Shown piece by piece: positions 919 to 53,848 of a stretch of DNA of 64,000 nt. The notes beneath the pieces were generated by a model. That model saw only the letters and a list, made by a program, of their open reading frames with translations, made no database searches and was not told the DNA's origin. A program made the translations under genes and the position numbers. This DNA is from a virus, in the IMG/VR virus record IMGVR_UViG_3300036823_000160, positions 13,537 to 77,536 of that record, one strand, 5' to 3'. Each line of letters starts with the position of its first letter. Within the stretch, counting starts at the first letter, position 1.

Positions 919-945
919 AGAAGCGAGGGACTGGGTCAGGGGTTC
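919..945 (+). promoter_or_regulatory. ECF-type promoter motif
   Basis: AGAAGC-N15-GGGTTC, GTG 8 nt downstream (954). Confidence 0.65.
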
Positions 946-953
946 GCTCTAGG

Positions 954-3230
954 GTGTCGAACAAGAAATCGCGGCCTGAACGGCGCGCCGGCGGTCCCAA
1001 GGTCGACGACCGCGAGCCAGTCCTGCGCGTGTACTTCGGAGAGGACGAGATCCACGTCGACCTGTTCGCTGGCGGTGGTGGCGCGTCGGTCGGCGCCGCG
1101 CTCGCGACCGGCCGCTCCCCCGACGTCGCGGTGAACCACTCGCCAGTCGCGATCGCGATGCATCGCGCAAACCATCCCACGACCCGGCACTACATCGAGG
1201 ACGTGTACGAGGTCGACCCGCGTGTTGCGACTCGCGGTCGGCAGGTCGCGTTACTTTGGCTATCCCCGACCTGCACGCACCATTCGAAGGCCAAGGGTGC
1301 CGCACTCGTCGACCGCAAGATCCGCGGCTTGTGCTGGTCTGCGTTGCCGTGGATCAAACACTGCCGCCCGCGCGTGATCATCCTCGAGAACGTCGAGGAA
1401 TTCGCCAAGTGGGGACCGCTCCATCGCCAGCACACGGACGGGTGCGAAGGCGTGAAGTGTGCCAAGGGGTGTCGATTCGGCACGATGCCCAAGAACCGTC
1501 GTGGCAAGGGTCGCATCAAGCACCACGACAAGGGCTGTCCCGGCGTCGAGTGCTCATCCAGGTGCCGCATCGATCGCCCAATCAAAGCGCGCGAGGCCGA
1601 GACCTTCAACGCGTTCGTCGCGAAGATCCGCTCGAAGGGTTACTCGGTCGAGTGGAAGTTCCTGCGCGCGTGTGACTACGGGGCGCCCACCACGCGCCGG
1701 CGCTTGTACATGGTAATGCGCGCGGACGGCCAGCCCGCGAGTTGGCCCGAGGTCACACACGGCCCGGGACTCGTGCCCTATCGCACCGCGGCCGAGTGCA
1801 TCGACTGGTCGATCCCGTGCCCGTCGATCTTCGACCGTGAGCGGGCGCTCGCGGACAAGACGATGGCGCGGATCGCGCGCGGCGTCCGCAAGTTCGTGAT
1901 GGAGAGCGAGCGCCCATTCATCGTGCCGGTGAACCACGGCGGTGTCGGACGTCGCGACCTACGCGTTCACGATTCGGCCGCGCCGATGCCCACGATCACC
2001 GGTGGTCAGCGCGGCGGACACGCGGTCGTGGTGCCGATCGTGACGAAGGCCAAGACCCACGGCGGCGGCAACGGCGTGCACTCGGGCGCAGAGCCGCTAG
2101 GAACCGTGACCGCGTCGAAGCGAGGGGAGTTCGCGCTTGCGTCCGCGACGCTTGTTCGCGCCGGCGCCACGGGTAATTTCCTCGTGTCCCCGGTCGTGGT
2201 CCCGGCCACGCACGGCGACTCGCGCGGCCAGCCTGACTCGCGCACGCACGGTGTCGACGAGCCGCTCCGCACGATCACGACGCTCGGCGCGCAGTTCTCG
2301 ATCGCGTCTGCCGTTCTGGTTCGCACTGCTCATGGCGATGTCGACGCGTCCGGTAAGCGACGTGGTCCCGGCGAGCACACGGTCGAAGCTCCGCTCGGTA
2401 CCGTGTGCGCCGGCGGCACCGATCACGCGATCGCCGCCGCGTATATGGTCCACCGTTCGAACGGCGAGCGACCGGGTCAGGCGCCGCGCGTCTACGACGT
2501 CGAGGACCCACACCCGACCGTTGTCGCCGAGGGGCTCAAGACCGCTGTGTGCGCAGCGTTCCTCGCCAAGCACAACGGCGGATCGCACGAGAGCAAGAAG
2601 GGCGGCCAGGCGGTCACCGCGCCCGCAGATACGATCTCGGCACAGGATCAGAAAGCGGTCACGGTCGCGCACCTCGTTCGCTACAACAGCGAGAACTCGG
2701 CCGCGTCCGCGCGCGGTCAGAGCGCCGACACGCCGGTCTCGACTCTCGATACCGCGAACCGGGTCGCGGTCGCGACCTCGCACCTGATGAAGCTCCGCGG
2801 CACGAGCCCTGCGCACGTCGCATCAAGTTCGCAAGCGGTGGACGCGCCCGCGCCGACGATCTCGGCCGAGGGCACGCATGTCGCCGAGGTGCGTGCGTTC
2901 CTGGTCCGGTACAACGGGCAGTCCGGCCCGCAGAACGTGGACGCGCCCCTCGGCACGCTCGACGCGACGGATCGGTATGGGCTCGCGACCGTGGTCATCG
3001 GCGGGGAGCTGTACGAAATCGTCGACATCGGGATGCGAATGCTCACGCCGCGCGAGCTGTTCGCTGCACAGGGGTTCCCTCCCACATACCAGATCGACCC
3101 CGTCGGCCCGAAGGGTAAGCGCCTGACCAAGACCGAGCAGATCCGCGCGTGCGGGAACTCGGTGTGTCCGCCGGTAGCTCGCGCGCTCGTCGAAGCCCAG
3201 TTCGCGCCGCAGCGCACCGTGGCTGCGTGA
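954..3230 (+). CDS. C5-cytosine DNA methyltransferase with repetitive variable region
   Basis: DLFAGGGG, SPTCTHHSKAKG, ILENVEEF, RMLTPRE, GNSVCPP; repeated P-x-x-T-[IV] modules. Confidence 0.92.
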   Translation: MSNKKSRPERRAGGPKVDDREPVLRVYFGEDEIHVDLFAGGGGASVGAALATGRSPDVAVNHSPVAIAMHRANHPTTRHYIEDVYEVDPRVATRGRQVALLWLSPTCTHHSKAKGAALVDRKIRGLCWSALPWIKHCRPRVIILENVEEFAKWGPLHRQHTDGCEGVKCAKGCRFGTMPKNRRGKGRIKHHDKGCPGVECSSRCRIDRPIKAREAETFNAFVAKIRSKGYSVEWKFLRACDYGAPTTRRRLYMVMRADGQPASWPEVTHGPGLVPYRTAAECIDWSIPCPSIFDRERALADKTMARIARGVRKFVMESERPFIVPVNHGGVGRRDLRVHDSAAPMPTITGGQRGGHAVVVPIVTKAKTHGGGNGVHSGAEPLGTVTASKRGEFALASATLVRAGATGNFLVSPVVVPATHGDSRGQPDSRTHGVDEPLRTITTLGAQFSIASAVLVRTAHGDVDASGKRRGPGEHTVEAPLGTVCAGGTDHAIAAAYMVHRSNGERPGQAPRVYDVEDPHPTVVAEGLKTAVCAAFLAKHNGGSHESKKGGQAVTAPADTISAQDQKAVTVAHLVRYNSENSAASARGQSADTPVSTLDTANRVAVATSHLMKLRGTSPAHVASSSQAVDAPAPTISAEGTHVAEVRAFLVRYNGQSGPQNVDAPLGTLDATDRYGLATVVIGGELYEIVDIGMRMLTPRELFAAQGFPPTYQIDPVGPKGKRLTKTEQIRACGNSVCPPVARALVEAQFAPQRTVAA

Positions 3231-3256
3231 AAGCTCGCGCGCGCCGATCGGGGTTC
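3229..3256 (+). promoter_or_regulatory. ECF-type promoter motif
   Basis: GAAAGC-N16-GGGTTC, GTG 8 nt downstream. Confidence 0.8.
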
Positions 3257-3264
3257 TGAGCCAG

Positions 3265-3567
3265 GTGAGGATCGACTTCGTCGTGTACGCACAGTTCATG
3301 GCGCGCTGGACGCGCGCTGAGCAGGCTCGGCTTGCCGAGCTCGAGCGCGGTCACACGCTTACGCAGTGTCCTTTCGTGGACGCGATCCTGTCCGGCGTGA
3401 TCACGGATCCGCTTCAGGCGAGCGCCATCAAGATGCGCGAGGATCGGATCGCCGCTGATGCGAGCCACGGGAGCGCCATCGAGCGCTATACGTACCGTGG
3501 TGGTCGGCTCCAGGTCTCGCCCGACAGCGTGCTGTGGGGCGAACTTGTAGTGGCCGGGACGATCTAG
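3265..3567 (+). CDS. hypothetical protein
   Basis: 100 aa ORF directly after promoter motif. Confidence 0.65.
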   Translation: MRIDFVVYAQFMARWTRAEQARLAELERGHTLTQCPFVDAILSGVITDPLQASAIKMREDRIAADASHGSAIERYTYRGGRLQVSPDSVLWGELVVAGTI

Positions 3568-3613: not shown

Positions 3614-3640
3614 GGAAGTGGCAGTAGCCCGGCGCGGTTC
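3614..3640 (+). promoter_or_regulatory. ECF-type promoter motif (variant)
   Basis: GGAAGT-N15-CGGTTC in intergenic gap. Confidence 0.5.
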
Positions 3641-3728: not shown

Positions 3729-4379
3729 ATGACCATGCCCCCGGCGCGTATCCCAGCCATCCCGACGACGTACAACGGGGTCAACTTCCGATCACGGCTC
3801 GAGAGCCGCTGGGCCGCGTTCTTCGACCTGGTGGGATGGCGCTGGTCATACGAGCCGCTCGACCTCCCTGGTCGCATCCCAGACTTCGTCATGCACTTCG
3901 TCGACCCGACGATCATCGAGTGCAAGCCGGCGTTCTCGGTGTCCGAGCTCGCCGAGCAACGGCGGGCGATGGTTCGGTCGGCGGCGGGCTGGTTGACCGT
4001 CGAGGCCGAGCGCGAGCTCCGTCAGCTTGACCGAGCCCCCTATCGCGAGGGCGATCTCACCAGGATCGACGCGCTCGTGGAGCACCTGAGCGCCGTCCGC
4101 GACCGTGGCGAGAACCCCCGCACGGGGCGGCGGGCGCTGGTTGTCGGTTCCCGCTTGTTTTCGACCGGTCCGGGTGACGAGTTCATCTCGCCCGACGGCG
4201 AGTGCGTGTTCGCGCGTTGTCACGGTTCGGACGGTCACGTAGCTCTCATGCTTCACACCAGGACCTGCATCGCCTGTGGGCGCGATGTCGATTTCGCCCG
4301 CCGACATCACGATGTCCCGCGTGACGTGAACGCGTGGTGGACCGAGGCAGGTAACAAGGTGCAGTGGAAGCCCTCGTGA
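3729..4379 (+). CDS. PD-(D/E)XK nuclease family protein
   Basis: FRSRLESRWAAFFD...YEP...PDF...IECKP. Confidence 0.8.
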   Translation: MTMPPARIPAIPTTYNGVNFRSRLESRWAAFFDLVGWRWSYEPLDLPGRIPDFVMHFVDPTIIECKPAFSVSELAEQRRAMVRSAAGWLTVEAERELRQLDRAPYREGDLTRIDALVEHLSAVRDRGENPRTGRRALVVGSRLFSTGPGDEFISPDGECVFARCHGSDGHVALMLHTRTCIACGRDVDFARRHHDVPRDVNAWWTEAGNKVQWKPS

Positions 4380-7318
4380 ACGAGATCGCCCACAGCCCAG
4401 ACATCGGGGCGGCGATGGGGTTCTTGCGCTCCTGGATCCCAGGAGGGCCGTGGAGCCTTGGCGCGATCGATCCCGATGATCGCCAGGGCCTTGCTTGGAT
4501 CACTACCGAGAGCGAGGTCGAGGCCGAACGGTTCCTCGTCGAGCAGTCGGCGCTCCGGCGCGGGATCTACTACCAGCCGAACGTGTGCCGAGACGACCTC
4601 GGTCCACGCCGTGCGAAGAAGGAGCACGTCGCGGTCGCGCTCTGTCTCCACGCCGATGTGGACCCGCCGGCTGTCGCGTCCGCGGCCGAGCTTGCCGCGT
4701 GGCAGGTGACGACGATGGAGCGGCTCGCCGACGGTGAGCACTGGCGCGCGAGCGAGCTTCCGGCGCCGACCGCGATCGTGTTCTCTGGCTCCGGCTTCCA
4801 GCTGCTATGGCGGCTGGCAGAGCCGGTGCTGCTCTGGTCCGACACGAACGGAAGCACGGAGCAAGACCCCGCGCTCGTCGACTCGGTCGAGGGCCGCTGC
4901 TACTCCATCATCCGGCGCGTGGACCCGTCGCACGTTGGGACGCACAACGTCGATCGGCTTCTCCGTCTGCCAGGGACGCTCAACTGGCCGAACGAGAAGA
5001 AGCGCGCGAACGGGCGCACGATCCCGGAGCTCGCGGCGGTCGAGTGGATCGGCAACGACCACACGCTCGAAGCGTTCCCGTACGAGCAGCCGCCCGAGTC
5101 AGCCGAGGCAGCTCCACGCTCCGAGGGCGCGGCTGCGCTCGCCCGTGAAGGCCGGGTAGCACCGGCCGCGCTCGCGGCCGCGCTTCCGCCGTGGCTGCAC
5201 GAGGCTGTGGTCGAGGGTCCCGAGAAGGGCGCAGACCGGAGCAAGGCCGCGTTCGCGGCCATCTGCGGGCTGATCCGTTGCGTCGACGACGACACGATCG
5301 AGGCGATTCTCGGCGACCCTGCATTCGCCGTGAGCGGGCACTTCCTAGATCAAGCTGACGTCGAGCGAGCGATCGGTCGCGCGATCGATGCCGCGCACCT
5401 GGAAGTGGACGTAAAGATTGCACAAGGGCGACGGCTACTGGAGGCCATGCAGCGCGAGCTCGCCCGGCGCGCGCCGGTCCTCGCGGTCCCGGTCACGCCC
5501 CCTCCGGCGCCCTCGCCTCCGCCACTGGTTCTGGAACTCGAGGTCGCGCCTCCGAACCCGCTCGCGTTCGTGTTGCCCTCGCCGAGCGAGCCCGCGTCCA
5601 CAGGCGCTCCTTCGATCCCGACGACGATCGAGTTCGAGGCCGCGCTGCGATCCGTTCAACGTCGCCTGAGTCGCCGTGTGGATCCCGATGCGATCCAGGA
5701 CGCCGAGTTGCTGAAGCGCGTTCTGGAAGGCGAGTTCCTGACGGCGGCAACGGACGCCGAGGACGATCGACAGGGCACGCTAGCGCGCGCCGTGCTCGCA
5801 GTCGCGCGCGCGGCTCCTCCGGGGGCGACCTCGGACCAGATCCATCGCCAGCTTCTCGCCAGCTCAGGAGCACTTGCGTGTGATCTGCCGGAGGTGATCC
5901 AAGAGGCTCTCGTGGTCGCCATCGAGCTCGGCCCGATTGGTCTGCCGGTTCGAAAGGAATCCGCGACCCTCGCGGCGCGCGCGAGCGATCCCGATGATTT
6001 CGACATCGAGCTGAGCGGTCCGCGTGCGGGGCGCCCCGCGAGCGCGAACCAGCGCAACGTGCGCCTCGCACTGCGCAAGCTCGGCGTCGAGCTCCGCTAC
6101 AACGACTTCGCGCGCCAGGAGGAGATCGTTCGCGGCGGTCGCGTCGATGTCGTCGAAGATCCGCACGTGAAGGCGTTGCGCGCTGAGATGGAGTCCGCGC
6201 ACGACTTCCGTCCCGGCAAGGACGACCTGTTCGACATGTGCGAGGTGATCGCGCGCGAGAATGCGTATCACCCTATCCGCGACTACCTGGCGTCGCTCCC
6301 CGAGGACGCGCCCGCTGGATCGCCCGCGAAGTTGACCGAGCGCTGGCTGATCGACTGTGCCGGCGCCGAGGACACCCCATATGTGCGCGCGGTCTCGCGC
6401 CTCGTGCTGGTCGCCGCGGTGCGGCGCGTGCGCCATCCGGGATGCAAGTTCGATGAGATGCTGGTCCTGGAGACGCCAATCCAGGGCAAGGACAAGTCCA
6501 AGGCTCTCGCCGCGCTCGCGGTTCGCGACGAGTGGTTCACCGACGATTTCAACTTCAAGAACGTCGACGACACCAAGAAGATGATGGAGACCACGACCGG
6601 TCGCTGGATCGTCGAGGCCGGCGAGCTAAAGGGCATGAACGAGGGTCGCTACAACGACCTCAAGGCGTACCTGTCCCGTCGCAAGGACGCCGCACGCGCC
6701 GCGTACGGACGAAAAACCACGACGGTGTTTCGCGAGTTCATCATCATCGGAACGACCAACGAGCAAAAGTACCTGCTCGATCCCACGGGCAACCGTCGAA
6801 TCTGGCCGGTTCGTGTGGTGCGCTTCGACGTCCTCGCACTGCTCGCGATGCGCGATCAACTGTGGGCGGAGGCTTCGCGCCTGGAGCTCGAGCACCCCGA
6901 GCCGGAGTATATCCGGCTCGATCCCGAGCTCTATGCGGCGGCGGCCGAACAGCAGGCCGCGCGCGAGGTCGATGATCCGATCCGCGAACGCCTGGATCGG
7001 GTCCTCGCCGACATCACCGGGCGGATCCGTGTCGAGGACGCGTGGAAAATCGTTGGCTACGAAGACGAGATCCCAAACCGCAGGGACAGCATGGCGATCT
7101 CCTCTGCGATGCAGTCGCTCGGGTTCGCACAGAGGCGAATCACGCAGGCTGGGGATCGTGGGACCTGGTACCGCCGCGGCGCGACCGAAGAGGAGCGTGA
7201 CCAGATCCTCGGCTTGACCGGCGGTGCCGCTGCGGGCTGGCGCGTCGGTCCAAAAGCAGGTGTCTATGGCGCGCGCCGATCCGGCCCATTGTCCGGTCCT
7301 GACCGGCGCGCGAACTAG
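4364..7318 (+). CDS. primase (RepB/AEP-like) fused to VapE/VirE helicase
   Basis: N-term DVD, SGSGFQ, RLLRLPGT; C-term PGCKFD, QGKDKS, RAAYGR, GTTN, DPTGNRR. Confidence 0.88.
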   Translation: MEALVNEIAHSPDIGAAMGFLRSWIPGGPWSLGAIDPDDRQGLAWITTESEVEAERFLVEQSALRRGIYYQPNVCRDDLGPRRAKKEHVAVALCLHADVDPPAVASAAELAAWQVTTMERLADGEHWRASELPAPTAIVFSGSGFQLLWRLAEPVLLWSDTNGSTEQDPALVDSVEGRCYSIIRRVDPSHVGTHNVDRLLRLPGTLNWPNEKKRANGRTIPELAAVEWIGNDHTLEAFPYEQPPESAEAAPRSEGAAALAREGRVAPAALAAALPPWLHEAVVEGPEKGADRSKAAFAAICGLIRCVDDDTIEAILGDPAFAVSGHFLDQADVERAIGRAIDAAHLEVDVKIAQGRRLLEAMQRELARRAPVLAVPVTPPPAPSPPPLVLELEVAPPNPLAFVLPSPSEPASTGAPSIPTTIEFEAALRSVQRRLSRRVDPDAIQDAELLKRVLEGEFLTAATDAEDDRQGTLARAVLAVARAAPPGATSDQIHRQLLASSGALACDLPEVIQEALVVAIELGPIGLPVRKESATLAARASDPDDFDIELSGPRAGRPASANQRNVRLALRKLGVELRYNDFARQEEIVRGGRVDVVEDPHVKALRAEMESAHDFRPGKDDLFDMCEVIARENAYHPIRDYLASLPEDAPAGSPAKLTERWLIDCAGAEDTPYVRAVSRLVLVAAVRRVRHPGCKFDEMLVLETPIQGKDKSKALAALAVRDEWFTDDFNFKNVDDTKKMMETTTGRWIVEAGELKGMNEGRYNDLKAYLSRRKDAARAAYGRKTTTVFREFIIIGTTNEQKYLLDPTGNRRIWPVRVVRFDVLALLAMRDQLWAEASRLELEHPEPEYIRLDPELYAAAAEQQAAREVDDPIRERLDRVLADITGRIRVEDAWKIVGYEDEIPNRRDSMAISSAMQSLGFAQRRITQAGDRGTWYRRGATEEERDQILGLTGGAAAGWRVGPKAGVYGARRSGPLSGPDRRAN

Positions 7319-7344
7319 GAAGCGCCGGTTCGAGCGGCAGGTTC
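7318..7344 (+). promoter_or_regulatory. ECF-type promoter motif
   Basis: GGAAGC-N15-AGGTTC, ATG 7 nt downstream. Confidence 0.65.
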
Positions 7345-7678: not shown

Positions 7679-8001
7679 GCCAGCTTGACACGAGCCAGCT
7701 CGAGCAGTTCCCGGTCGTGTGGTTGACCAGGGACCTCGTCTTCGGCGTGCTCGACACCGAGGTCGATGTCTGGTGCGAGCGGCCGGCGCCACGTCATCTC
7801 GACGACGGGGACGTGCTCTGGGGGATGCCGCCCGAGGGCGAGCGAGTGGTGTTCGCGGCCGACGGTGTCGCGGATGACGAACCCGCATGCCTGGGGTCCT
7901 TGTCGCTCGAGGACGCCCTGCGGTTCGCAGGGCCGGGCGTGCCCGCGACCTCTCGTGAATGCCTCCGGGTCGGCCCGGCGCCGGCCAGGACCGCTGCTTG
8001 A
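7675..8001 (+). CDS. hypothetical protein
   Basis: GTGA overlap with upstream gene. Confidence 0.65.
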   Translation: MSQLDTSQLEQFPVVWLTRDLVFGVLDTEVDVWCERPAPRHLDDGDVLWGMPPEGERVVFAADGVADDEPACLGSLSLEDALRFAGPGVPATSRECLRVGPAPARTAA

Positions 8002-9992: not shown

Positions 9993-10360
9993 GCCGCCTC
10001 GATCACATCGTCGCGCGTCGGCGCGAGGACCCGCGCGCGCCTCGAGTGCAGTACACGCAGTCGAGCGCGCGCGGCTACCGGTTCTCGGTGAAGAACTGGA
10101 CCTCGAAGTGGCACAAGCAGGGCTCGTCCTGGGGGCGCACGCGCGTCGCCGACCTCGCCGAGCGCCGCGCTGGTCGCGCACCCCAGCGCGTGCAGACCCC
10201 GAGCCCGAGCGCCGCGAAGATCGGCGCCGCTACCGAGCGCGCGATCGCTCGGATTCGCGCGATGCCGGCGCCCGAAGGCATGTCCCGCCAGGTCCGGCGC
10301 GCGCTCACTCGGCGTGCCGAGACCACCGCGCGCGCCGCCCTGTCTCGGGCGGGGGCGTAG
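9989..10360 (+). CDS. hypothetical basic protein
   Basis: GTGA-coupled ORF. Confidence 0.55.
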   Translation: MSRLDHIVARRREDPRAPRVQYTQSSARGYRFSVKNWTSKWHKQGSSWGRTRVADLAERRAGRAPQRVQTPSPSAAKIGAATERAIARIRAMPAPEGMSRQVRRALTRRAETTARAALSRAGA

Positions 10361-10769: not shown

Positions 10770-12719
10770 GTGGCCGACGACTGGCGCCCCATCAACCCGA
10801 AGTTCACGAACGGGAACGGGATCCTAGGTCCACGCAGATTGCCCGTCGCATCGTCGCCCGATCTCACACGCGTTCTCGCACTTCCCAGGCGCGCCCCTGT
10901 GCGAGGGGGCACCGCGACCGCTCAGGCGCTCGTGGAGATCGGGATGCAACGCTACTCGCTTGGAGAGCGGACGTGCGCATGCCGAGCCATCGATCCCGAG
11001 CGGGCGCGCGCAGCTGACGAGGAGGGTCGGTCGCCGTGCGTGTCGCGCCTGCTCTGGCTGCAGGGCTGGCTGCTTCACGAGATCACGGTCGCGAACGGCG
11101 TTATCGCGAACGCTGCGGTAGGCGGCGGCAAGGGCCTCGTGAACATCCTGGCGCCGCTCGCACTCCGTGACTGCCCCGTCTGCCTACTACTGGTCCCGCC
11201 TTCCCTCCTCGACCAGATCACGACCGAGTACCAGCTCTACGCCGAGCACTTCCGCGTTCCGGGTCTCGTTGTTCATCTGCCTGGAAGGCAGACCTGGTCG
11301 CGACCGCCTCGCGGCGACGAACCGATGCTGCACGTGGTCGGCTACTCGAAGTTGAGCGGGATCGACAACTCGGAGCTCATCGAGCGCCTGCGGCCGGACG
11401 CGATCATCGCTGACGAGTGCGACGCGCTCGGGTCGCTCGAGAGCGCCCGCGTCCTTCGCTTCGCGCGGTTCATGATGGAGAACGAGCGCGTGCGGTTCTG
11501 CGGGTGGACGGGCTCGCTCACCGATAGGAAGCTGCTCGAGTTCGCCCATCTCTCGGCGTTCGCGCTGCGCGAGAACTCGCCGCTCCCTCTGGATCGCGAG
11601 GTGACCGAGGACTGGGGCCGGTGCATCGATGACTCGGTGAATCCTGCGCCCGCTGGCGCGTTGGCCAGGATGCTCGAGCCGAACGAGCATCAGTCGCAGA
11701 TCCGCCAAGCGTTCCGCCGGCGGCTGTCTCAGACAGCAGGCTTCGTCCTCGTTGAGGGCGAGCAGGTGATCACGAACTCGAGCGGACGGGTCGAACTGGT
11801 CGTACGCGAAAAGGAATCCCCCCTGATCCCGGAGATCGTCGATGACGCGCTCAAGAAGGTCCGGGACTTCATTCGCCCCGATACCCTCGGCGGCAGCGAC
11901 CAGGACGAGATCCTCGTGGACCCCCTCGAGCAAGCACGATGCGCGCGCGAGGTCGCGACCGGCGTGTTCTATCGCTGGATCTTCCCGCGTGGCGAGAAGC
12001 GCGAGGTGATCTACGAGTGGTACGAGGCACGGAAATCGTGGAACTCCGAGCTCCGGCACAAGATGCTACGTGGCGAGGTCAACCTCGACTCGCCAAAGCT
12101 ATGCGAGAACGCCGCGCGCCGCGCGTGGGGTGATGCTCCCAAGGACGCGAACCTGCCCGAGTGGGAGGCAGAGTGCTGGCCGCGCTGGCGCGACATCTCC
12201 CCCCAGGTCGAGCCCAAGACCGAGGCGGTCCGACTGCACCCGTTCCTGGCCGAGGACGCGGCGCGGTGGGGGCTCGAGCACAGCGGCCAAGGCAACGCGG
12301 GGATCATCTGGTACACGATGGTCGAGCTGGCGCAGTGGATCGCCGAGCTCTCCGGTCATGCCCTGCCCGTGCACGGCGGAGGCCCCAACGCCGGCAAGGC
12401 GATCGCGCGCGAGGACGGATCACGGACGATCATCGCCTCGATCAAGTCGCACGGTCGCGGTCGCGACAGGCTCCAGTACTCGTTCGCGCGCCAGCTCCTG
12501 GTGAACATGCCGTCATCCGACCGCGTGATCACCCAGTTGCTGGGCCGACTACACCGTCGCGGCCAGCCCAAGCCGCTGGTGGACACGGAGGCGTATCTGC
12601 ACACGGACGAGCTCCGGTCCTCCATGCGGCAGGCGCTGCGTCGCGGCGAGTACGTAGAGGAGATCACCGGCGAGAAACGGAAGCTTCTGTCTGCCTGGAC
12701 CGGTGATCTCGACGATTGA
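10770..12719 (+). CDS. SF2 (SNF2-like) helicase
   Basis: VGGGKG, IIADEC, WTGS, QLLGRLHRRGQ. Confidence 0.85.
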   Translation: MADDWRPINPKFTNGNGILGPRRLPVASSPDLTRVLALPRRAPVRGGTATAQALVEIGMQRYSLGERTCACRAIDPERARAADEEGRSPCVSRLLWLQGWLLHEITVANGVIANAAVGGGKGLVNILAPLALRDCPVCLLLVPPSLLDQITTEYQLYAEHFRVPGLVVHLPGRQTWSRPPRGDEPMLHVVGYSKLSGIDNSELIERLRPDAIIADECDALGSLESARVLRFARFMMENERVRFCGWTGSLTDRKLLEFAHLSAFALRENSPLPLDREVTEDWGRCIDDSVNPAPAGALARMLEPNEHQSQIRQAFRRRLSQTAGFVLVEGEQVITNSSGRVELVVREKESPLIPEIVDDALKKVRDFIRPDTLGGSDQDEILVDPLEQARCAREVATGVFYRWIFPRGEKREVIYEWYEARKSWNSELRHKMLRGEVNLDSPKLCENAARRAWGDAPKDANLPEWEAECWPRWRDISPQVEPKTEAVRLHPFLAEDAARWGLEHSGQGNAGIIWYTMVELAQWIAELSGHALPVHGGGPNAGKAIAREDGSRTIIASIKSHGRGRDRLQYSFARQLLVNMPSSDRVITQLLGRLHRRGQPKPLVDTEAYLHTDELRSSMRQALRRGEYVEEITGEKRKLLSAWTGDLDD

Positions 12720-12744
12720 AAGCGACCACGCGAGCTCCGGGTTC
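12718..12744 (+). promoter_or_regulatory. ECF-type promoter motif
   Basis: GAAAGC-N15-GGGTTC, followed by a leader with AGGAG. Confidence 0.8.
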
Positions 12745-12779
12745 TGGTCTCGCTCTCAACGAGCAGGAGAACGAAGAAC

Positions 12780-13499
12780 ATGGGTAAGTACGGACACATT
12801 CTCAAGGGCATCAAGGACTCCAAGCCGATGGGGGGGTTCATCGACAAGTTCCCCGAAGGTACCTACCTCCTAGCGCTCAAGCGCTACGAGCCGGTTCAAT
12901 CGGCCAAGAGCAAGAACGACTGGCGCATCGAGTCCGAGTGGCTCGTGATCGAGTCGTCGCTTCCCGAGTTCCTCGGCAAGACGCGCGGCTGGCCATGGTT
13001 CATCAACTCGCGGACGAGCGAGCACTCGGCCGAGTACGAGCAGGACCGCGCGAACCAGTTCCTCAGCGAGGCCATGAAGACGTTCACGTCCGATGGCGAC
13101 GTCGCGGCACTTGTTGCGTTCGCGCAGCAGGTCTCCGGGCCTGGAGCACCGTTCGATCAGGACTCGTTCGCCGAGCTCCTGTCCGACGCGTCCCAGCCGC
13201 TTCGCGGGATGAAAATCCGCCTCGACGTCACCGAGCGCGCGGCGAAGGATAACCCGGCGAAGAAGTACCAGAACGCGAAGTGGACCGCGGTCTCGCAAAC
13301 CCTTACCGAGGTCGCCGCGTACGGCAGTCAGATGGCCATGTTCGAGGCCAAGAACGCGCACCCGAACGCGCCGAACGCCGCGGCGTCGGCCCCGCGCGCC
13401 TCCGGGGTCGCTGCACCTGTTCCGCTCACGCTAGGAACCGCGTCGGCGCCGTTGGCGCTCAGTGGTGCGCCGACGCTCACGATCCCCGGAGCTCGCTAG
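12780..13499 (+). CDS. putative ssDNA-binding protein
   Basis: Position in replication module, PEGTY N-terminal strand, strong RBS; function inferred. Confidence 0.5.
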   Translation: MGKYGHILKGIKDSKPMGGFIDKFPEGTYLLALKRYEPVQSAKSKNDWRIESEWLVIESSLPEFLGKTRGWPWFINSRTSEHSAEYEQDRANQFLSEAMKTFTSDGDVAALVAFAQQVSGPGAPFDQDSFAELLSDASQPLRGMKIRLDVTERAAKDNPAKKYQNAKWTAVSQTLTEVAAYGSQMAMFEAKNAHPNAPNAAASAPRASGVAAPVPLTLGTASAPLALSGAPTLTIPGAR

Positions 13500-13501
13500 T
13501 T

Positions 13502-13894
13502 GTGCTGACCACGATCAGCACCGCGTTGGACATCGCCGCGTTCGTGTTTGTGGCCATGCTGCTCACGTTCACGTTGCGGACGCCGTCTGTGCGCTCCGGC
13601 CCGATCATCACGATGTTGATGACCGTGATCACCGCCATCGTGATCGGCGCGTTCGCATTGCTTGCGGGGTGCAGTAACGCGAGCACGAACTCGCCGCTCA
13701 TCTGGCGGACGCCACTTCCTGATGGCGACCAGGTATGCCGCTGGGACGATTCACGGACACGCGCCGGCTGCATCGCGGAGGGTCGCGTGTTCCTGTGCGC
13801 GCGCACGTCAGGCGCCTTCGTCGACTGCATGGAGGTGGCACGCCCTCTCGAGGATACGCCGGCAGATGGAAGCGCGAAGGGTGGTCACCCGTGA
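13502..13894 (+). CDS. membrane/lipoprotein with Cys-rich domain
   Basis: Hydrophobic N-term, LAGC lipobox. Confidence 0.6.
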   Translation: MLTTISTALDIAAFVFVAMLLTFTLRTPSVRSGPIITMLMTVITAIVIGAFALLAGCSNASTNSPLIWRTPLPDGDQVCRWDDSRTRAGCIAEGRVFLCARTSGAFVDCMEVARPLEDTPADGSAKGGHP

Positions 13895-14115
13895 GTGTGC
13901 GCGCCGAGTTCCAGACCCACCTCCTGAACGAGCGCGGGCTCGCCGCCGCGAGCGCGATTGGCCAGGTGTTCTCGGACGCGCTCGACAAGATCGAGGCGCT
14001 CGTCCCCTCGGGCCGCGAGCGCGCGCTCGTCACTACCAAGTTGCAGGAGGCGGCTTTCTTTGCCAAGCGCGCGATCGCGGTCGACCCCGCGAACCAGATC
14101 AAGGACGAGTCGTGA
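13891..14115 (+). CDS. Acb2/Tad1-like helical hairpin protein (putative nucleotide-signal sponge)
   Basis: 74 aa; GRERALVTTKLQEAAFFAKRAIA resembles the Acb2/Vs.4 C-terminal helix. Confidence 0.65.
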   Translation: MSVRAEFQTHLLNERGLAAASAIGQVFSDALDKIEALVPSGRERALVTTKLQEAAFFAKRAIAVDPANQIKDES

Positions 14116-14357
14116 TCAAGCTCGTCATCGCCGCAGCCCTCGTGCTGTCCGGGTGCAGGCACGCCGTGCCGCGCGAGTGGCGCGGCATTCCAGCGGGCCA
14201 GCGCTCGTGCTCGTGGCAAGACCACCGGGGTACCTGCGTCACGGACAGTCGCGCGTACCTGTGCATCGACGACTGGCAGGAGAACCTGGTCGCGTGCGCG
14301 CCGATCGTCTCGCCGCCGTTGCCGCCCCCATCCTCACCACCGGCGGAACAGCCGTGA
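14112..14357 (+). CDS. small Cys-rich lipoprotein
   Basis: MIKLVIAAALVLSGC lipobox. Confidence 0.7.
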   Translation: MIKLVIAAALVLSGCRHAVPREWRGIPAGQRSCSWQDHRGTCVTDSRAYLCIDDWQENLVACAPIVSPPLPPPSSPPAEQP

Positions 14358-15196: not shown

Positions 15197-15199
15197 CCC

Positions 15200-15445
15200 A
15201 TGGCGCAACCGATCACACCAGCCCAGGCGCACAATGCGTGCCTCGAAACCGCGTACGTGAGCCACGTCGAGCGCGTGAACACGTTCCTGCGCAACACCCC
15301 GCCGAACACCGTAGGAGCGCGCTGGTTCTCCGTCGATGGGATCGCCTACAGCCATCTCTGGCGTCTGCAGCGCGAGTTCCAGGCCGCCGGTTGGACGGTC
15401 CGGCACATAGCGGACAGCGCGTCGTTCGTGTTCGAGGGGACCTAG
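15200..15445 (+). CDS. hypothetical protein
   Basis: ORF in operon. Confidence 0.6.
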   Translation: MAQPITPAQAHNACLETAYVSHVERVNTFLRNTPPNTVGARWFSVDGIAYSHLWRLQREFQAAGWTVRHIADSASFVFEGT

Positions 15446-15446
15446 C

Positions 15447-16433: not shown

Positions 16434-16789
16434 CACACCTGCGCTGGCTCGTGGATCGTTTGGTGTCTCGGGTGTGGTTCTGGCGCCATCACATCGAGGC
16501 CGTGATGCCGACCGACCAGGTTGGTCAGTACATGGCCGAGTGCTCGTGCGGTGGCGGGGTGCAGTTCGTGGCGCACTGGTCGCACGCGTCCGTGATCACG
16601 GTCTCGACGTGCGCGCTCGGCTCATGGTTGATGTGCCGCGGTCACGGTGTCGCGTTGTCACCCGCACGCATCGATCGATCGAGCGCTGAAAGCGCTCGCC
16701 CGATCTCGCGGTTCCTCGTCGAGTGCAGCTCGACCGCGTCGCCTCGTTTAGTACGACCGCGCTTGCGTTCGACCTCGAGACCCACGTAG
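16430..16789 (+). CDS. hypothetical protein (3' end uncertain)
   Basis: ATGA-coupled; runs over the promoter motif and polymerase start. Confidence 0.45.
   Translation: MTHLRWLVDRLVSRVWFWRHHIEAVMPTDQVGQYMAECSCGGGVQFVAHWSHASVITVSTCALGSWLMCRGHGVALSPARIDRSSAESARPISRFLVECSSTASPRLVRPRLRSTSRPT
16688..16714 (+). promoter_or_regulatory. ECF-type promoter motif
   Basis: GAAAGC-N15-CGGTTC, GTG 8 nt downstream. Confidence 0.8.
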
Positions 16790-19707: not shown

Positions 19708-19708
19708 C

Positions 19709-19735
19709 GAAAGCGCAAGAACGAGTTCGCGGTTG
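19709..19735 (+). promoter_or_regulatory. ECF-type promoter motif
   Basis: GAAAGC-N15-CGGTTG, ATG 8 nt downstream. Confidence 0.75.
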
Positions 19736-20283: not shown

Positions 20284-20780
20284 TCCTCGTCAGGCTCGCC
20301 GCCGCCGCCGCGTTCGCGATCCTGATCGCACTCGCCGCCCCTTTCCCGTCGCCGACAGCGGACCGCGTTCGTGCGCTGCCCGACACGGCGCTCACGAGCG
20401 AGGCGGCGGACGAGAACGTCGCCGCGGCGCGGATCGCGGGCATGCTCACGGGTGAGCGGCCCGAGATCCTGCTCGCGCTCGCATGGCACGAGTCGCGCTT
20501 CATCTCGAACGCGGTCTCACGGGAGGCGAACGGCCTGGTTAGCTGCGGAATCGCGACCCCAGAACCACAGGCCAAGTGCGAGGACGAGCCGCTCGTGATC
20601 CAGTACCAGCGCGGCGCCGAGCACCTCGCGGGCTGGCGGCGCGCACTCGGCGATCGAGCGCTGTTTGGATACGCGGGTGGGTACCGACTCAACAAGGCGT
20701 GCCTCGCCGGCTCGACGGTGCGCGGGTGCACTTTCCCGGCGTGGATGGAGTCGCTCGCGAACCGGATCGCGGGTCTCTGA
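20280..20780 (+). CDS. lytic transglycosylase (SLT-like) with N-terminal hydrophobic segment
   Basis: LLALAWHESRF catalytic Glu motif; AL.GYAGG. Confidence 0.65.
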   Translation: MILVRLAAAAAFAILIALAAPFPSPTADRVRALPDTALTSEAADENVAAARIAGMLTGERPEILLALAWHESRFISNAVSREANGLVSCGIATPEPQAKCEDEPLVIQYQRGAEHLAGWRRALGDRALFGYAGGYRLNKACLAGSTVRGCTFPAWMESLANRIAGL

Positions 20781-20807
20781 AAAGCGGACCTGTCAGCGCG
20801 CGGGTTC
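20780..20807 (+). promoter_or_regulatory. ECF-type promoter motif
   Basis: AAAAGC-N16-GGGTTC, ATG 9 nt downstream. Confidence 0.75.
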
Positions 20808-21050: not shown

Positions 21051-21322
21051 AGTCCAAGCTATCGAAGTCACAGGTTCGCAAACAGGCCGTGTTCATCTGC
21101 CAGACCGCGGCGATTAACCCCGTAGCATACCACGGCGAGTTCTACGACCGTGTCGTCGATACGTTTGGGCTCTCCAAGCCAGCTCGGCACCTCGCGGTCG
21201 CGGCTTGGGTTGCCGTCGTACACGGGAGTTCTTGGACGATCGAGACCGACGGCGAGGCGGCGGCCTTGCTCGCTACCGGATGGTCGCCCGGGGTAGCGAT
21301 TAAGCGGAGGCGTAGCGAGTGA
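21047..21322 (+). CDS. hypothetical protein
   Basis: GTGA-coupled ORF. Confidence 0.6.
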   Translation: MKSKLSKSQVRKQAVFICQTAAINPVAYHGEFYDRVVDTFGLSKPARHLAVAAWVAVVHGSSWTIETDGEAAALLATGWSPGVAIKRRRSE

Positions 21323-21347
21323 ACGCGGTCGTCCCACTCCGGGGTTC
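21321..21347 (+). promoter_or_regulatory. ECF-type promoter motif
   Basis: GAACGC-N15-GGGTTC, ATG 9 nt downstream. Confidence 0.7.
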
Positions 21348-25226: not shown

Positions 25227-25254
25227 GAAAGCGCTGGCCCGCGCCCTGGGGTTC
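25227..25254 (+). promoter_or_regulatory. ECF-type promoter motif
   Basis: GAAAGC-N16-GGGTTC, GTG 8 nt downstream. Confidence 0.8.
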
Positions 25255-27412: not shown

Positions 27413-27440
27413 GAAAGCCGCCGGCGGCGGGGACGGGTTC
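27413..27440 (+). promoter_or_regulatory. ECF-type promoter motif
   Basis: GAAAGC-N16-GGGTTC, ATG 8 nt downstream. Confidence 0.8.
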
Positions 27441-27448: not shown

Positions 27449-27703
27449 ATGGGTGAATTGAACTTCGTCGTGTTCGTCGGTGCGCACGGCACCGGCAAGA
27501 TCTGGCTCGCGAATTACGTCCAGTCCGAGTTCGTGGACATCATCGATGACTGGGACCCGGTGCTCGAGCTTCGCAATCCACGGACACGGACGCCCGGACA
27601 CAGGGTGGTCGCGTGCACGAATGTGCCGATCTCGATGTGGCCGACCGATATCTACGAACGCGTCCGCGCGCAAGGCAAGATCTACGTCGTGGCCGAGGTC
27701 TGA
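27449..27703 (+). CDS. miniature P-loop protein
   Basis: VVFVGAHGTGK, IIDD; 84 aa. Confidence 0.6.
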   Translation: MGELNFVVFVGAHGTGKIWLANYVQSEFVDIIDDWDPVLELRNPRTRTPGHRVVACTNVPISMWPTDIYERVRAQGKIYVVAEV

Positions 27704-27728
27704 AAGCACACCTGCCACACGCGGGTTC
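27702..27728 (+). promoter_or_regulatory. ECF-type promoter motif
   Basis: GAAAGC-N15-GGGTTC, leader with AGGAG. Confidence 0.8.
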
Positions 27729-27757: not shown

Positions 27758-28099
27758 ATGAGTTGGAGCGTGTACGCGACCGGGCCCAAGGCCACGGTCA
27801 TCGAATCGATCACCAATAACTTCGACACTCAGGCCGCGAACTACACCGGCGAGCGCGAGCGGGAGGGCAAGGACATCCTCGCCTGCAAGGAGCGCGTGCT
27901 CGCGTTGATCGAGGACCTCGACCTCGAGCCGAACGAGTACTCGCCCCAGGGCTACGAGGTCGCCATCTCGTGCCACGGCTCGCACTCGACGTCGTACACG
28001 CACAAGGGGCCGAACGACCCCGCGGACTCGAGCAAGCTGATGAGCGCGAGCTTCAACTGCGCGGTCGCGCGCAAGGCGATCCCACTCGTCGCCGACTGA
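27758..28099 (+). CDS. hypothetical protein
   Basis: Strong RBS, own promoter. Confidence 0.75.
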   Translation: MSWSVYATGPKATVIESITNNFDTQAANYTGEREREGKDILACKERVLALIEDLDLEPNEYSPQGYEVAISCHGSHSTSYTHKGPNDPADSSKLMSASFNCAVARKAIPLVAD

Positions 28100-28125
28100 A
28101 AGCGCGCGGGTACGCGAGCGGGTTC
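28098..28125 (+). promoter_or_regulatory. ECF-type promoter motif
   Basis: GAAAGC-N16-GGGTTC, ATG 7 nt downstream. Confidence 0.8.
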
Positions 28126-30040: not shown

Positions 30041-30067
30041 GAAAGCTCGCGAACCATCTCGGGGTTT
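30041..30067 (+). promoter_or_regulatory. ECF-type promoter motif
   Basis: GAAAGC-N15-GGGTTT, ATG 11 nt downstream. Confidence 0.75.
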
Positions 30068-32236: not shown

Positions 32237-32454
32237 TGTTCGGCGCAGCCTTGTTCCCAGGATCCCATTCTAGGCCCACGGTCTCGCTCGAGGACCTCGA
32301 CACGCCCGCGACCGACGGTGAGATCCGCGTCGAGACCGACGAAGGGCTTAGCAAGCGCGTGCTCTACGTCGCCGATCCCACGAACGAGATCCACACCGCG
32401 TACGGGCGCCAGCTCGACGAGGTCGCCGAGCGCCAGTTACACGACGCGGCCTGA
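32236..32454 (+). CDS. hypothetical protein
   Basis: TGATG-coupled ORF. Confidence 0.55.
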   Translation: MFGAALFPGSHSRPTVSLEDLDTPATDGEIRVETDEGLSKRVLYVADPTNEIHTAYGRQLDEVAERQLHDAA

Positions 32455-32480
32455 AAGCGACCGTCGCCTCGTGCGGGTTC
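32453..32480 (+). promoter_or_regulatory. ECF-type promoter motif
   Basis: GAAAGC-N16-GGGTTC, ATG 9 nt downstream (32490). Confidence 0.8.
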
Positions 32481-35333: not shown

Positions 35334-36788
35334 TTACGCCGCTTTTTCGTCCGCAACGTCGCCCGAGGTTGCGTCCGCGCCGCGATACCCGTACTCGGTA
35401 CGAGCGAACTTCGCCAGCACGGGCGCGAGTGCCATCCGCGCGCGCGCCAGCCGCGTGTGGACCGTGTTCTTGGGGATGCCGAGGTCGCGCGCGATCTCCT
35501 CGCAGCCCTGGCCCCAGGCGTAGAAGCGCTTCACCACCTCGCGCTTGTCGTGGTCGAGCTCAGCGATCGCGGCGAGCACCTCGTCCCCGAACGGCTCCTT
35601 GTCGTCGACGCGCACCGGCTGCGTGACCGCGACGATGTCCGGCGATCGCGATTCACCAGCGTCCTGGTACTGGATCGCGAGCGCGGTATCGGTGCCGTGG
35701 GCAGCCGCGACCAGGTCCTCCCGCCGTTCGCGCGCGGCTCGGCGTCGCACGTTCCGGTGGTGGTACGTCTTCACGAATGTGTTGCAGACGATGCGGTACA
35801 TCCATCCGCGCGCGGCGGCGATGGGGTCACCTTCGGGCACCCAGCGCGGCCACGCGCGGAAAGCCTTCGCGAACGCGTCCTGGACGACGTCCGCGGCTCG
35901 ATCGGCGTCGCCATCACAGAGTCGTCGCGCGTAGGCGACGAGGTCCGGGCGCAGTGGTAGCACCAGCGTCTCGAAAGAGGGCGCGGCCGGCTCGACAAGC
36001 GCGCGGTCACCGAACTCGGCTGCGACCGCGGCCAGCATCGCCGCCGGCATCGCCGTAAGTCCGACGGCGCGCACGACCTCACCTGGCTCGAACACGCCGC
36101 CGCGGGTCGCAAGCCCCCACACGCGCGCCAGGTCGTTGCCGGACAGTTCGGCTAGGATCGCGGGGTCGTCGTCGCGAAACCGCGCCTCGACCTCGCGTCG
36201 CGTCGCGATCCCGGTCGCGACCTGCAGCTCGACGAGAGACGCCAGAAACGTGCGGGTTTCGCAGGACGCCGCCGCGCCCGCGCGCTCGATCCCGTCGCGA
36301 ACCGTCGGCCACGCGTCGCCGGCGACCAGCCGCTCGACGCCGATGACCGCGATCGCGTCCGAGATCCAGAGTCGCCCGCTCGCTAGGCCGCGCGCCATCA
36401 GGCAGGCGGCGAGTTCGCGGTTCGCGACGAGGAACGTCGGGTCCGTGATCAGAGCGCGAGCGTGTCGCGTCAGATCCAGAATGCCGGCTTCGGCCTCCGC
36501 GGCGAGCGCGCGCGTGAGCCAGTCATCAGCCCCCGACGTTCGTGACCAGGCGTTTGCTGGTCGCTCGTCCGGCGCGTCCTCGACGGCCGGCTCGGCGGTG
36601 AGCTCGTTCAGCGGAGCGAGCTCGGGGAGTGAGGGCTGCGAGAGGATGACCGGCCGTGACGGGACCGGTGGTAGAATTTCGTTCAGGGACGACGCAAGCG
36701 ACGGGACAATGTGCAGCATGGACCTCCAGACGCTCGCCCACCGGCGTGCGTCAGGACCAGTCATCCCATACGGGAGTTCACTGGTCAA
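35334..36788 (-). CDS. ECF RNA polymerase sigma factor with long N-terminal extension (start may be 36764 or 36719)
   Basis: Region 2 LVAYARRLC...AADVVQDAF...WMYRIVCN; region 4 CEEIARDLGIPKNTVHTRLARAR. Confidence 0.9.
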   Translation of the reverse strand: MTSELPYGMTGPDARRWASVWRSMLHIVPSLASSLNEILPPVPSRPVILSQPSLPELAPLNELTAEPAVEDAPDERPANAWSRTSGADDWLTRALAAEAEAGILDLTRHARALITDPTFLVANRELAACLMARGLASGRLWISDAIAVIGVERLVAGDAWPTVRDGIERAGAAASCETRTFLASLVELQVATGIATRREVEARFRDDDPAILAELSGNDLARVWGLATRGGVFEPGEVVRAVGLTAMPAAMLAAVAAEFGDRALVEPAAPSFETLVLPLRPDLVAYARRLCDGDADRAADVVQDAFAKAFRAWPRWVPEGDPIAAARGWMYRIVCNTFVKTYHHRNVRRRAARERREDLVAAAHGTDTALAIQYQDAGESRSPDIVAVTQPVRVDDKEPFGDEVLAAIAELDHDKREVVKRFYAWGQGCEEIARDLGIPKNTVHTRLARARMALAPVLAKFARTEYGYRGADATSGDVADEKAA

Positions 36789-36809
36789 CCCGAATTGTGA
36801 CCAGTGAAC
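36776..36809. promoter_or_regulatory. 12-bp perfect inverted repeat (putative operator)
   Basis: GTTCACTGGTCA-N10-TGACCAGTGAAC at the sigma gene 5' end. Confidence 0.7.
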
Positions 36810-38541: not shown

Positions 38542-38568
38542 GAACCCGATGAGGGTGGTCGCGCTTTC
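38542..38568 (-). promoter_or_regulatory. ECF-type promoter motif
   Basis: GAAAGC-N15-GGGTTC on - strand, ATG 8 nt downstream. Confidence 0.8.
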
Positions 38569-39980: not shown

Positions 39981-40007
39981 GAACCCGTAACACCTCCGGG
40001 ACCTTCC
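39981..40007 (-). promoter_or_regulatory. ECF-type promoter motif (variant)
   Basis: GGAAGG-N15-GGGTTC, ATG 10 nt downstream. Confidence 0.6.
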
Positions 40008-41747: not shown

Positions 41748-41803
41748 CCTGGCGGAACCCTACCGCACGGCGCGGCCGATGCCCAGTCAATCACTGGTCT
41801 CGC

Positions 41804-53185: not shown

Positions 53186-53188
53186 AGA

Positions 53189-53365
53189 TCAGTCCTCCTC
53201 GTCGTTCGGGACGGCGCTGTCGAACGCGTCTGCCGCACGTCCAAGCATGTCGACGTCGTCGATCGACATGTGCGTTGAGACCTCGGTCCAGGTAGCGTGT
53301 CCGAGGACGACCAGGCGGAAACAGGACCAGGTTCCCTCCGCCCGGATGTCCTCCGGCACGTTCAC
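53189..53365 (-). CDS. second tail assembly chaperone ORF
   Basis: Between chaperone and tape measure, -1 frame to the upstream gene. Confidence 0.6.
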   Translation of the reverse strand: MNVPEDIRAEGTWSCFRLVVLGHATWTEVSTHMSIDDVDMLGRAADAFDSAVPNDEED

Positions 53366-53814
53366 GCTGGCGAGTTTGCGACCGGGCCCGGGACGGACGC
53401 CGGGACGGCCGGCGCGTCCCCGTCGAAGAAATCCGAGAAGTTGACCTGTACCGCGAAGACGACGACGTTGAGCATCGCCTTCACTCGACCCGAGAACACG
53501 ATGTCGAGCGCGGCCTGGTTGTTGAGCTGGATGTTCCCCTGGCCGGGGATGAACGCGACGGTGTTCTCGAGGATCGCGCATGCGAGCGCGGTCGCCTCTT
53601 CGGGGTCCAACGAAGAGAACGCGGCCATGAAGGACGGGCTCATGGCCTTCATGACTTCCTTGAGGTCGGTCTTCGGATCGAAGTCACCGAAGGCGCCGAG
53701 CGCTGGCCCGATGAGTCGTACGAGACGGAAGAACAGCTTGAACGCGCGCATCGCCGGCAGCTGCGTCGTCGTCACCTGAATCCCGTCGACGGTCTTGGAT
53801 TCGGTCTTGATCAT
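53362..53814 (-). CDS. tail assembly chaperone
   Basis: Position after tube gene; VNFSDFF. Confidence 0.75.
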   Translation of the reverse strand: MIKTESKTVDGIQVTTTQLPAMRAFKLFFRLVRLIGPALGAFGDFDPKTDLKEVMKAMSPSFMAAFSSLDPEEATALACAILENTVAFIPGQGNIQLNNQAALDIVFSGRVKAMLNVVVFAVQVNFSDFFDGDAPAVPASVPGPVANSPA

Positions 53815-53821
53815 GGCGTCC

Positions 53822-53848
53822 TAACCGCTCGGTTCGAGCGTGGCTTCC
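53822..53848 (-). promoter_or_regulatory. ECF-type promoter motif (variant)
   Basis: GGAAGC-N15-CGGTTA, ATG 7 nt downstream. Confidence 0.55.

Follow-up and report, generated by a model that had tools for sequence, protein, structure and literature searches.

A 64,000-nucleotide stretch of a viral genome assembled from a soil metagenome (the window; bases 13537-77536 of the single 77,536-bp contig of IMG/VR virus record IMGVR_UViG_3300036823_000160) contains a bipartite motif, G(A/G)AAGC-N16/17-GGTTC, repeated at gene junctions, and a gene for a sigma factor of the extracytoplasmic function (ECF) type. Eighteen sites lie in the window and a nineteenth elsewhere on the contig. We consider it probable that these sites are ECF (group 4) type promoters, that they are read by the host core RNA polymerase together with the phage ECF-type sigma, and that most of the units they head are leaderless. 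Each site would constitute a minimal cassette: a -35 box G(A/G)AAGC, often overlapping the preceding stop codon, a spacer of 16-17 bp, a -10 box GGTTC, and a start codon about 8 nt further on. By the open-complex geometry of Mycobacterium tuberculosis SigH, transcription would start 0-2 nt before the ATG or GTG, and around 16 units would be transcribed into leaderless mRNAs that do not need a Shine-Dalgarno sequence. The genes served would be those for DNA methylases, pieces of the polymerase and exonucleases, along with many small genes and a lysis operon possibly reaching the sigma gene; within the units, genes would rely on ordinary GGAGG/AGGAG sites or on overlapping stop-start coupling.

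The bipartite motif and its placement

A first-pass annotation of the window described 18 copies of GAAAGC-N15/16-GGGTTC at gene junctions, all sense to the next gene and switching strand with the genes. The exact form of this motif occurs eight times against 0.03 expected, and none of 100 shuffles reaches eight; all 18 coordinates carry either the motif or a variant with one or two mismatches. Aligned on GGTT, the sites are better described as G(A/G)AAGC-N16/17-GGTTC. GGTT is invariant in all 19 sites. In the -35 box, the middle A is invariant, the next A is present in 18 of the 19 sites, and the G that follows, in the fifth position, is again invariant. The hexamer reads GAAAGC in 11 sites, five sites have GGAAG, and three further sites also lack the second G. 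Twelve sites have a 16-nt spacer and seven a 17-nt one, and the spacer sequence is unconserved. Fragmentary contigs of four soil runs, covering positions 12700-32699, provide an anecdote: at site 27413, one relative's contig has at least two substitutions in the spacer (27422, 27424) and, among those listed, none in the boxes. An arrangement of two non-palindromic boxes on either side of a 16- or 17-bp spacer whose sequence is not conserved is a hallmark of sigma-70-family promoters.

Scoring with a position weight matrix yields 16 matches of at least 18 bits against 0.09 in shuffled sequences, and 22 matches of at least 14 bits against 1.1. All matches of at least 16 bits occupy gene junctions and are oriented like the downstream gene, switching strand with the gene arms. 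The placement first described for the 18 sites holds for all of them. The same boxes are recovered by an unbiased count of hexamers in the 60 nt upstream of all 95 called genes, where GGGTTC ranks first (16 regions against 2.2 expected, p 5e-10) and GAAAGC second (nine regions against 0.8). The gene calls are a crude in-house set, by which about 12% of the genome is non-coding. Once the 19 sites are removed, no second bipartite motif with a 14-20-nt gap stands out in the whole genome; sigma-70 consensus promoters are not above chance in any scanned part of it, and a terminator scan returned nothing above chance. An IMG/VR scan with TGAAAGCG-N14/15-GGGTTC gave single, chance-like matches only, and retrieved no locus with several matrix matches. 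The ATG at 41747 is preceded, at 7 nt, by a lone GGGTTC (window 41755-41760, minus strand). A -35 box is not recognisable 16-17 nt away from this GGGTTC, which could be either a degenerate member of the class or a chance occurrence.

The geometry of the sites is that of ECF promoters, as the first-pass annotation had proposed from the (G)GAA-type -35 box, the GTT-containing -10 box and the rigid spacing. The M. tuberculosis SigH promoter is GGAACA-N17-GTT, with the last T, T(-9), flipped into sigma2 (PMC6411747), and the SigH and SigE promoters of Corynebacterium glutamicum follow GGAA(T/C)-N18-19-GTT (PMC10012870). The distance from the hexamer to GTT in the phage sites is 17 nt (12 sites) or 18 nt (seven sites), against a SigH optimum of 17. 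The sites share with promoters of the SigH/SigR/SigE kind (ECF12/ECF14-type) the AA core of the -35 box, the GTT of the -10 box and the distance between them. They differ in their GAAAGC consensus, in which the second G of the GGAA(C/T) core is mostly A and an invariant G takes the place of the C or T at the fifth position, and in a -10 box that extends to GGGTTC.

The phage sigma factor as candidate reader

The sigma gene is the last gene of the minus arm. Its assignment to the ECF type in the first-pass annotation stands; of the extent given there, 35334-36788, position 36788 is an in-frame TTG, and we place the gene at 35334-36719, where its ATG is preceded by GGAGG. Pfam recognises Sigma70_r2 and Sigma70_r4_2 only (regions in Table 1), with no match to region 3, and the sigma70-ECF model TIGR02937 scores 65 bits against a cut-off of 42.9. 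The models of named ECF subfamilies (SigH_actino, the SigE family, SigM, RpoE and others) all remain far below their cut-offs, with 56 against 251.55 bits for TIGR02947 and 61 against 141.55 for TIGR02983. The phage sigma family phrog_1740 matches the protein with an E-value of 5e-22, and the nearest solved chains are M. tuberculosis SigL, SigH and SigE. Its closest relatives in large protein collections are metagenomic proteins of 220-270 aa with 45-56% identity; the N-terminal extension of about 245 aa is common, in part, to one metagenomic homologue only. No IMG/VR locus was found with the sigma, an alignment of its family or one homologue as query, and in scans of genome and metagenome contigs the matches listed were all cellular ECFs, about 30-35% identical to it. 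Beside the gene we saw no anti-sigma domain: its upstream neighbour encodes a GH25 endolysin, and its convergent neighbour (34761-35327) has no Pfam match. With no ZAS-type anti-sigma gene seen next to it, and with scores far below the SigH_actino and SigE-family cut-offs, the phage sigma differs from SigH, SigR and SigE.

CheckV rates the genome as 100% complete, no other protein encoded in it matches sigma region 2, and a search for a T7-type RNA polymerase found no match, its control being uninformative. One sigma and one sigma-type motif in a complete genome make the phage sigma the economical choice of reader. Several points weigh against this reading. The pairing of sigma and promoters, though the most likely one, is reached by exclusion, and promoter status, the transcription starts, the identity of the reader and any autoregulation are what we infer from the DNA sequence. 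The specificity loop of the phage sigma is 3 aa longer than that of M. tuberculosis SigH and lacks its T76 and N77, so recognition of GTT does not follow by homology. The structural/lysis arm carries the gene at its far end, and the promoter scans of the genome found no early promoter for it. Two sites are weak by sequence in leave-one-out scoring, 3614 with 10.7 bits and 53822 with 11.1, and about six such matches per genome are expected by chance. Site 3614 is doubtful, the next long open reading frame (ORF) being 88 nt away; the weaker site 53822 is retained for its position 7 nt before the ATG of a chaperone gene whose family profile aligns from residue 1. Finally, the five sites of the form GGAAG-N17/18-GTT might be readable by a host SigH-like sigma.

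Such a host sigma is at the centre of the strongest alternative, in which the sites are genuine ECF-type promoters served by a host factor of the SigH/SigR/SigE kind, perhaps released in infection stress, and the phage sigma has other targets or modulates the host enzyme. The geometry equals the GGAA-N18/19-GTT of host promoters, and the specificity loop of the phage sigma is unlike that of SigH. C. glutamicum SigH tolerates any base at -31 ('GGAAN') and drives rshA from GGAAGA-N17-GTT (PMC10012870), which would extend to the five GGAAG sites. In most sites, however, the second G of GGAA is replaced by A (the 11 GAAAGC sites, with three more also lacking the G), whereas changing the base at nearly any -35 or -10 position abolishes the activity of SigH (PMC6411747). 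Moreover, the phage has an ECF sigma of its own, its complete genome offers that sigma no other candidate target motif, and the cellular ECF relatives have no such motif upstream of their genes (one of 82 loci, against a background of 1.5%). We therefore regard service by a host sigma as unlikely.

If the phage sigma is the reader, it may also act on its own gene. There is no terminator-like site between promoter 38542 and the sigma gene, and transcription from this promoter may run on into it. Such read-through would amount to positive autoregulation, which is usual for ECF sigmas. The 129-nt gap upstream of the sigma gene also holds a perfect inverted repeat, TTCACTGGTCA-N10-TGACCAGTGAA (window 36777-36808), and two further copies of the half-site TTCACTGGTCA (54287-54297 and 62379-62389) lie where structural genes start; the repeat is a candidate operator that may control the sigma and late genes. 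Three long minus-strand ORFs (window 62390, 47545 and 36788) can begin with (G/T)TGACCAG, giving products of 504 aa, 522 aa and a 484-aa form of the sigma, and several early-region genes begin with CTGGTCATG or ATGACCA, so that a CTGGTCA/TGACCAG box overlaps start codons.

Phage sigma factors with promoter classes of their own have experimental precedent. The sigma gp47 of Salmonella phage 7-11 recognises eight bipartite late promoters, GTAAtg-N16-aCTA, with a rigid 16-bp spacer and starts 6-9 bp past the element (PMC8948821), and gp36 of coliphage phiEco32 is likewise a phage sigma with phage promoters (PMC12276001). The likeness lies in a lytic phage that lacks an RNA polymerase of its own and encodes a divergent sigma, which redirects the host core to a phage-specific promoter class repeated before genes, as is proposed here. 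In contrast to these systems, the sigma of the present phage is a clear ECF factor with a long N-terminal extension, and it has no detectable homology to gp36 or gp47 (tblastn with the whole sigma and with its C-terminal domain, 50,697 phage records). There are 19 sites rather than six to eight, and where the promoters of those phages serve late structural genes, the present ones head genes for replication, modification and lysis. The sites also abut start codons, so that leaders are predicted to be absent.

Start-codon spacing and predicted leaders

An ATG (12 units) or GTG (four units) follows GGTTC by 7-11 nt in 16 of the 19 sites, with a mode of 8: the gap is 7 nt in four sites, 8 in seven, 9 in three, and 10 and 11 in one each. 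The first base of the start codon lies 9-11 nt past the last T of GTT in 14 of the 19 sites. With this T at -9, the predicted +1 falls on the first base of the start codon for a gap of 7, 1 nt before it for a gap of 8 and 2 nt before it for a gap of 9. Given the SigH geometry and the 7-11-nt gap, the leaders should be about 0-3 nt long, yielding nearly leaderless mRNAs from about 16 units. Without a coupling of the 5' end to the start codon, so narrow a spacing would be difficult to account for. In mycobacterial transcriptomics, a leader of at most 5 nt counts as leaderless, ATG or GTG is sufficient for initiation, and about 24% of Mycobacterium smegmatis transcripts are leaderless (PMC6448022).

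No Shine-Dalgarno sequence of at least 4 nt is plausibly placed before any of the 16 short-spaced starts; GGAGG or AGGAG stands at a normal distance before many other genes of the genome, and both of the long leaders, at 12718 and 27702, contain AGGAG. In at least six sites the -35 box overlaps the TGA that ends the preceding gene; at 7318 the stop codon is a TAG instead (Table 1). Eleven entire intergenic gaps are only 33-46 nt long and consist of stop codon, -35 box, spacer, -10 box and start codon. The first-pass annotation had reported the short spacing in 15 of its 18 sites, the little room left for a Shine-Dalgarno sequence, AGGAG in two of three longer leaders and the reuse of the upstream TGA, and each of these observations is confirmed.

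These arguments presume that the starts are correctly placed. If some were mis-assigned, the promoters would still be real, but the true starts would lie further downstream and part of the set would be leadered. The gene calls are crude, homologues by which the N-terminus might be anchored are lacking for 12 of the 19 ORFs downstream, and some units contain later in-frame starts with a weak Shine-Dalgarno-like tetramer, such as GTG 3283 with GAGG 12 nt upstream. Against this, the 7-11-nt spacing seen in 16 sites has a chance of about 0.003 per match (95 called genes x 5 positions, over 2 x 77,536 bases) and is not expected if it has no function, and the proposed codon is the first start codon of the ORF in at least seven units. 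Family profiles align from residues 1-9 in four units: the chaperone, the repair exonuclease, the RNase T-like exonuclease at 32490 (Pfam RNase_T from residue 7; phrog_192 also matches) and the polymerase piece at 16723 (phrog_17 from residue 9; PF00476 matches the following ORF). Such mis-assignment appears very unlikely. It is more improbable still that the motif is not a promoter but is bound by a DNA-binding protein of the phage, or acts at the RNA level in processing or in translational re-initiation: although its distances to the stop codon before it and the start codon after it are always fixed, its boxes are non-symmetric, its spacer is fixed in length and unconserved in sequence, the only complement between the boxes is the 3-bp GAA/TTC, so that no stem is possible between them, and ECF promoter geometry is matched exactly, down to the predicted +1.

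Leaderless mRNAs are known for single phage genes such as lambda cI. With these and with actinobacterial leaderless mRNAs, the phage units share predicted 5' ends at or within about 3 nt of the ATG or GTG and the lack of a Shine-Dalgarno sequence. Some host promoters of the SigH kind are leaderless too, cg3344 and clgR P1 starting 0-1 nt from the start codon (PMC10012870). The difference is that the layout extends here to almost the entire promoter class (16 of 19 sites), in fixed 33-46-nt stop-to-start cassettes, rather than to a scattered subset of genes or a lone repressor gene. The literature searched contains no description of a phage sigma regulon built of leaderless units.

Promoter units, genome context and significance

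Table 1. Motif sites and the sigma factor gene. Positions refer to the window unless marked; gaps are counted from the -10 box to the start codon.
Feature	Position	Strand	Boxes and spacer	Start codon (gap)	Downstream gene and remarks
Sigma factor gene	35334..36719	-			ECF-type; sigma2 aa 276-340, sigma4 aa 403-454, after ~245-aa N-terminal extension
Site	919..945	+	AGAAGC-N16-GGTTC	GTG 954 (8 nt)	C5 cytosine methylase 954-3230 (Pfam DNA_methylase); leave-one-out 14.4 bits
Site	3229..3256	+	GAAAGC-N17-GGTTC	GTG 3265 (8 nt)	100-aa ORF; methylase TGA overlaps -35 box
Site	3614..3640	+	GGAAGT-N16-GGTTC		Weak, doubtful; next long ORF 3729-4379 (88 nt downstream), then VapE primase 4364-7318
Site	7318..7344	+	GGAAGC-N16-GGTTC	ATG 7352 (7 nt)	Primase TAG abuts -35 box
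Site	12718..12744	+	GAAAGC-N16-GGTTC	ATG 12780 (35-nt leader with AGGAG)	Top score, 27.1 bits; TGA overlaps -35 box
Site	16688..16714	+	GAAAGC-N16-GGTTC	GTG 16723 (8 nt)	N-terminal/exonuclease piece of family A DNA polymerase
Site	19709..19735	+	GAAAGC-N16-GGTTG	ATG 19744 (8 nt)	179 aa, no assigned function
Site	20780..20807	+	AAAAGC-N17-GGTTC	ATG 20817 (9 nt)	77 aa; TGA overlaps -35 box
Site	21321..21347	+	GAACGC-N16-GGTTC	ATG 21357 (9 nt)	Beta-helix protein, 474 aa (Pfam Beta_helix)
Site	25227..25254	+	GAAAGC-N17-GGTTC	GTG 25263 (8 nt)	Small ORF
Site	27413..27440	+	GAAAGC-N17-GGTTC	ATG 27449 (8 nt)	84 aa
Site	27702..27728	+	GAAAGC-N16-GGTTC	ATG 27758 (29-nt leader with AGGAG)	TGA overlaps -35 box
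Site	28098..28125	+	GAAAGC-N17-GGTTC	ATG 28133 (7 nt)	TGA overlaps -35 box; unit runs into N6/N4 DNA methylase 28361-29671 (Pfam N6_N4_Mtase)
Site	30041..30067	+	GAAAGC-N16-GGTTT	ATG 30079 (11 nt)	
Site	32453..32480	+	GAAAGC-N17-GGTTC	ATG 32490 (9 nt)	RNase T-like exonuclease; TGA overlaps -35 box
Site	38542..38568	-	GAAAGC-N16-GGTTC	ATG 38533 (8 nt)	Heads 37805-38533, GH25 endolysin 36849-37808, and sigma gene if read through
Site	39981..40007	-	GGAAGG-N16-GGTTC	ATG 39970 (10 nt)	DNA repair exonuclease, 463 aa (phrog_704, E 9e-102)
Site	53822..53848	-	GGAAGC-N16-GGTTA	ATG 53814 (7 nt)	Weaker site; tail assembly chaperone (phrog_1613 from residue 1)
19th site	L161:3810-3837 (outside window)	sense to next gene		ATG (7 nt)	ATG missed by gene calls

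The gene functions first attributed to the regulon are upheld in part. The C5 and N6/N4 methylases, two PolA pieces, the RNase T-like exonuclease (annotated as orn) and, through the weak site 3614, the VapE primase are present, but the proposed SSB and GT operon have no such Pfam or PHROG matches, and the gene after 21321 encodes a beta-helix protein. Likewise, the description as a middle regulon fits in part only: the class also heads the repair exonuclease, the lysis operon (a dGTPase-like gene, the GH25 endolysin and perhaps the sigma) and, more weakly, the tail assembly chaperone. The first gene of the lysis unit, 37805-38533 (minus strand), weakly resembles two families: the N-terminal domain of dATP/dGTP diphosphohydrolase, with a score below the cut-off, and a T7-lysozyme-like PHROG whose annotation reads 'inhibits RNA polymerase'. 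The family A DNA polymerase is apparently split into ORFs 16723-18192 and 18205/18430-19707 (plus strand) with a stretch of about 240 nt between them, and the promoter motif precedes the first piece only.

The contig has linear ends and a G+C content of 66.8%. Its genes run rightward up to window position 35327 and leftward from the contig end down to 35334. The phage is contractile-tailed, with a sheath about 30-36% identical to those of Pakpunavirus and Felix-O1-like phages. Megablast and tblastn searches of the 50,697 phage records found no relative above about 35% amino acid identity for sheath, capsid and primase and none at all for the sigma and the endolysin, and no IMG/VR record closer than about 35% amino acid identity was found. 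The best clue to the host is a GP88-family protein (PF17338; window 14294-15196, plus strand), for which tblastn finds matches in 136 phage records, all of them Streptomyces or Mycobacterium phages. The nearest cellular relatives of the sigma, among the matches listed in the contig scans, and its nearest structural relatives are actinobacterial as well. Together with the predicted GTG-initiated leaderless starts, which fit Actinobacteria, these matches suggest that the host is probably an actinobacterium.

Other features of the genome lie apart from the promoter class. A Mom-family DNA modification protein (L161:303-1109) and the large terminase Terminase_6C (L161:11773-13569) are both encoded on the plus arm, far from the structural genes of the minus arm, and nine tRNA genes (Glu, Ser x2, Arg, Cys, Gln, Thr, Ala, His; window 62425-63997, minus strand) lie upstream of the structural arm. 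Sigma54-like GG-N10-GC elements occur at junctions (window 62391-62405, minus strand; L161:1915-1929, 7774-7788 and 10278-10292, plus strand), including one perfect TGGCAC-N5-TTGC. We rejected this pattern as a second promoter class, since TGGCRC-N7-GC is not enriched (22 matches against 13.4 expected in the window, four against 3.4 in the first 14 kb). No sigma54 activator gene scores above the Pfam cut-off, and an actinobacterial host would make recognition by sigma54 unlikely.

The phage would be a clean new example of a known phage strategy, that of an own sigma with its own promoter class. Whether the leaderless design also serves a purpose is a bolder question. It could be imagined that an N-terminally extended ECF sigma, free of any anti-sigma factor, drives a self-contained set of stop-to-start cassettes whose mRNAs bypass the Shine-Dalgarno sequence, so that replication and lysis proteins are made while the phage itself or host stress shuts down canonical translation, the extension acting as a built-in regulator or as a domain for RNA polymerase capture; we regard this as a long shot. 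The escape from blocks on Shine-Dalgarno-led translation suggested in the first-pass annotation is speculation, and an unnecessary one if the host is actinobacterial, because leaderless mRNAs are routine in Actinobacteria. If the proposed mechanism is true, the sigma and its promoter of about 30 bp would form a compact orthogonal pair, available as a synthetic-biology part for Actinobacteria, and the phage would show, as a natural case, an entire class of phage genes organised into leaderless units. It would help to annotate start codons and operons in uncultured high-GC phages, and to explain how a phage can take over the host RNA polymerase without anti-sigma control.

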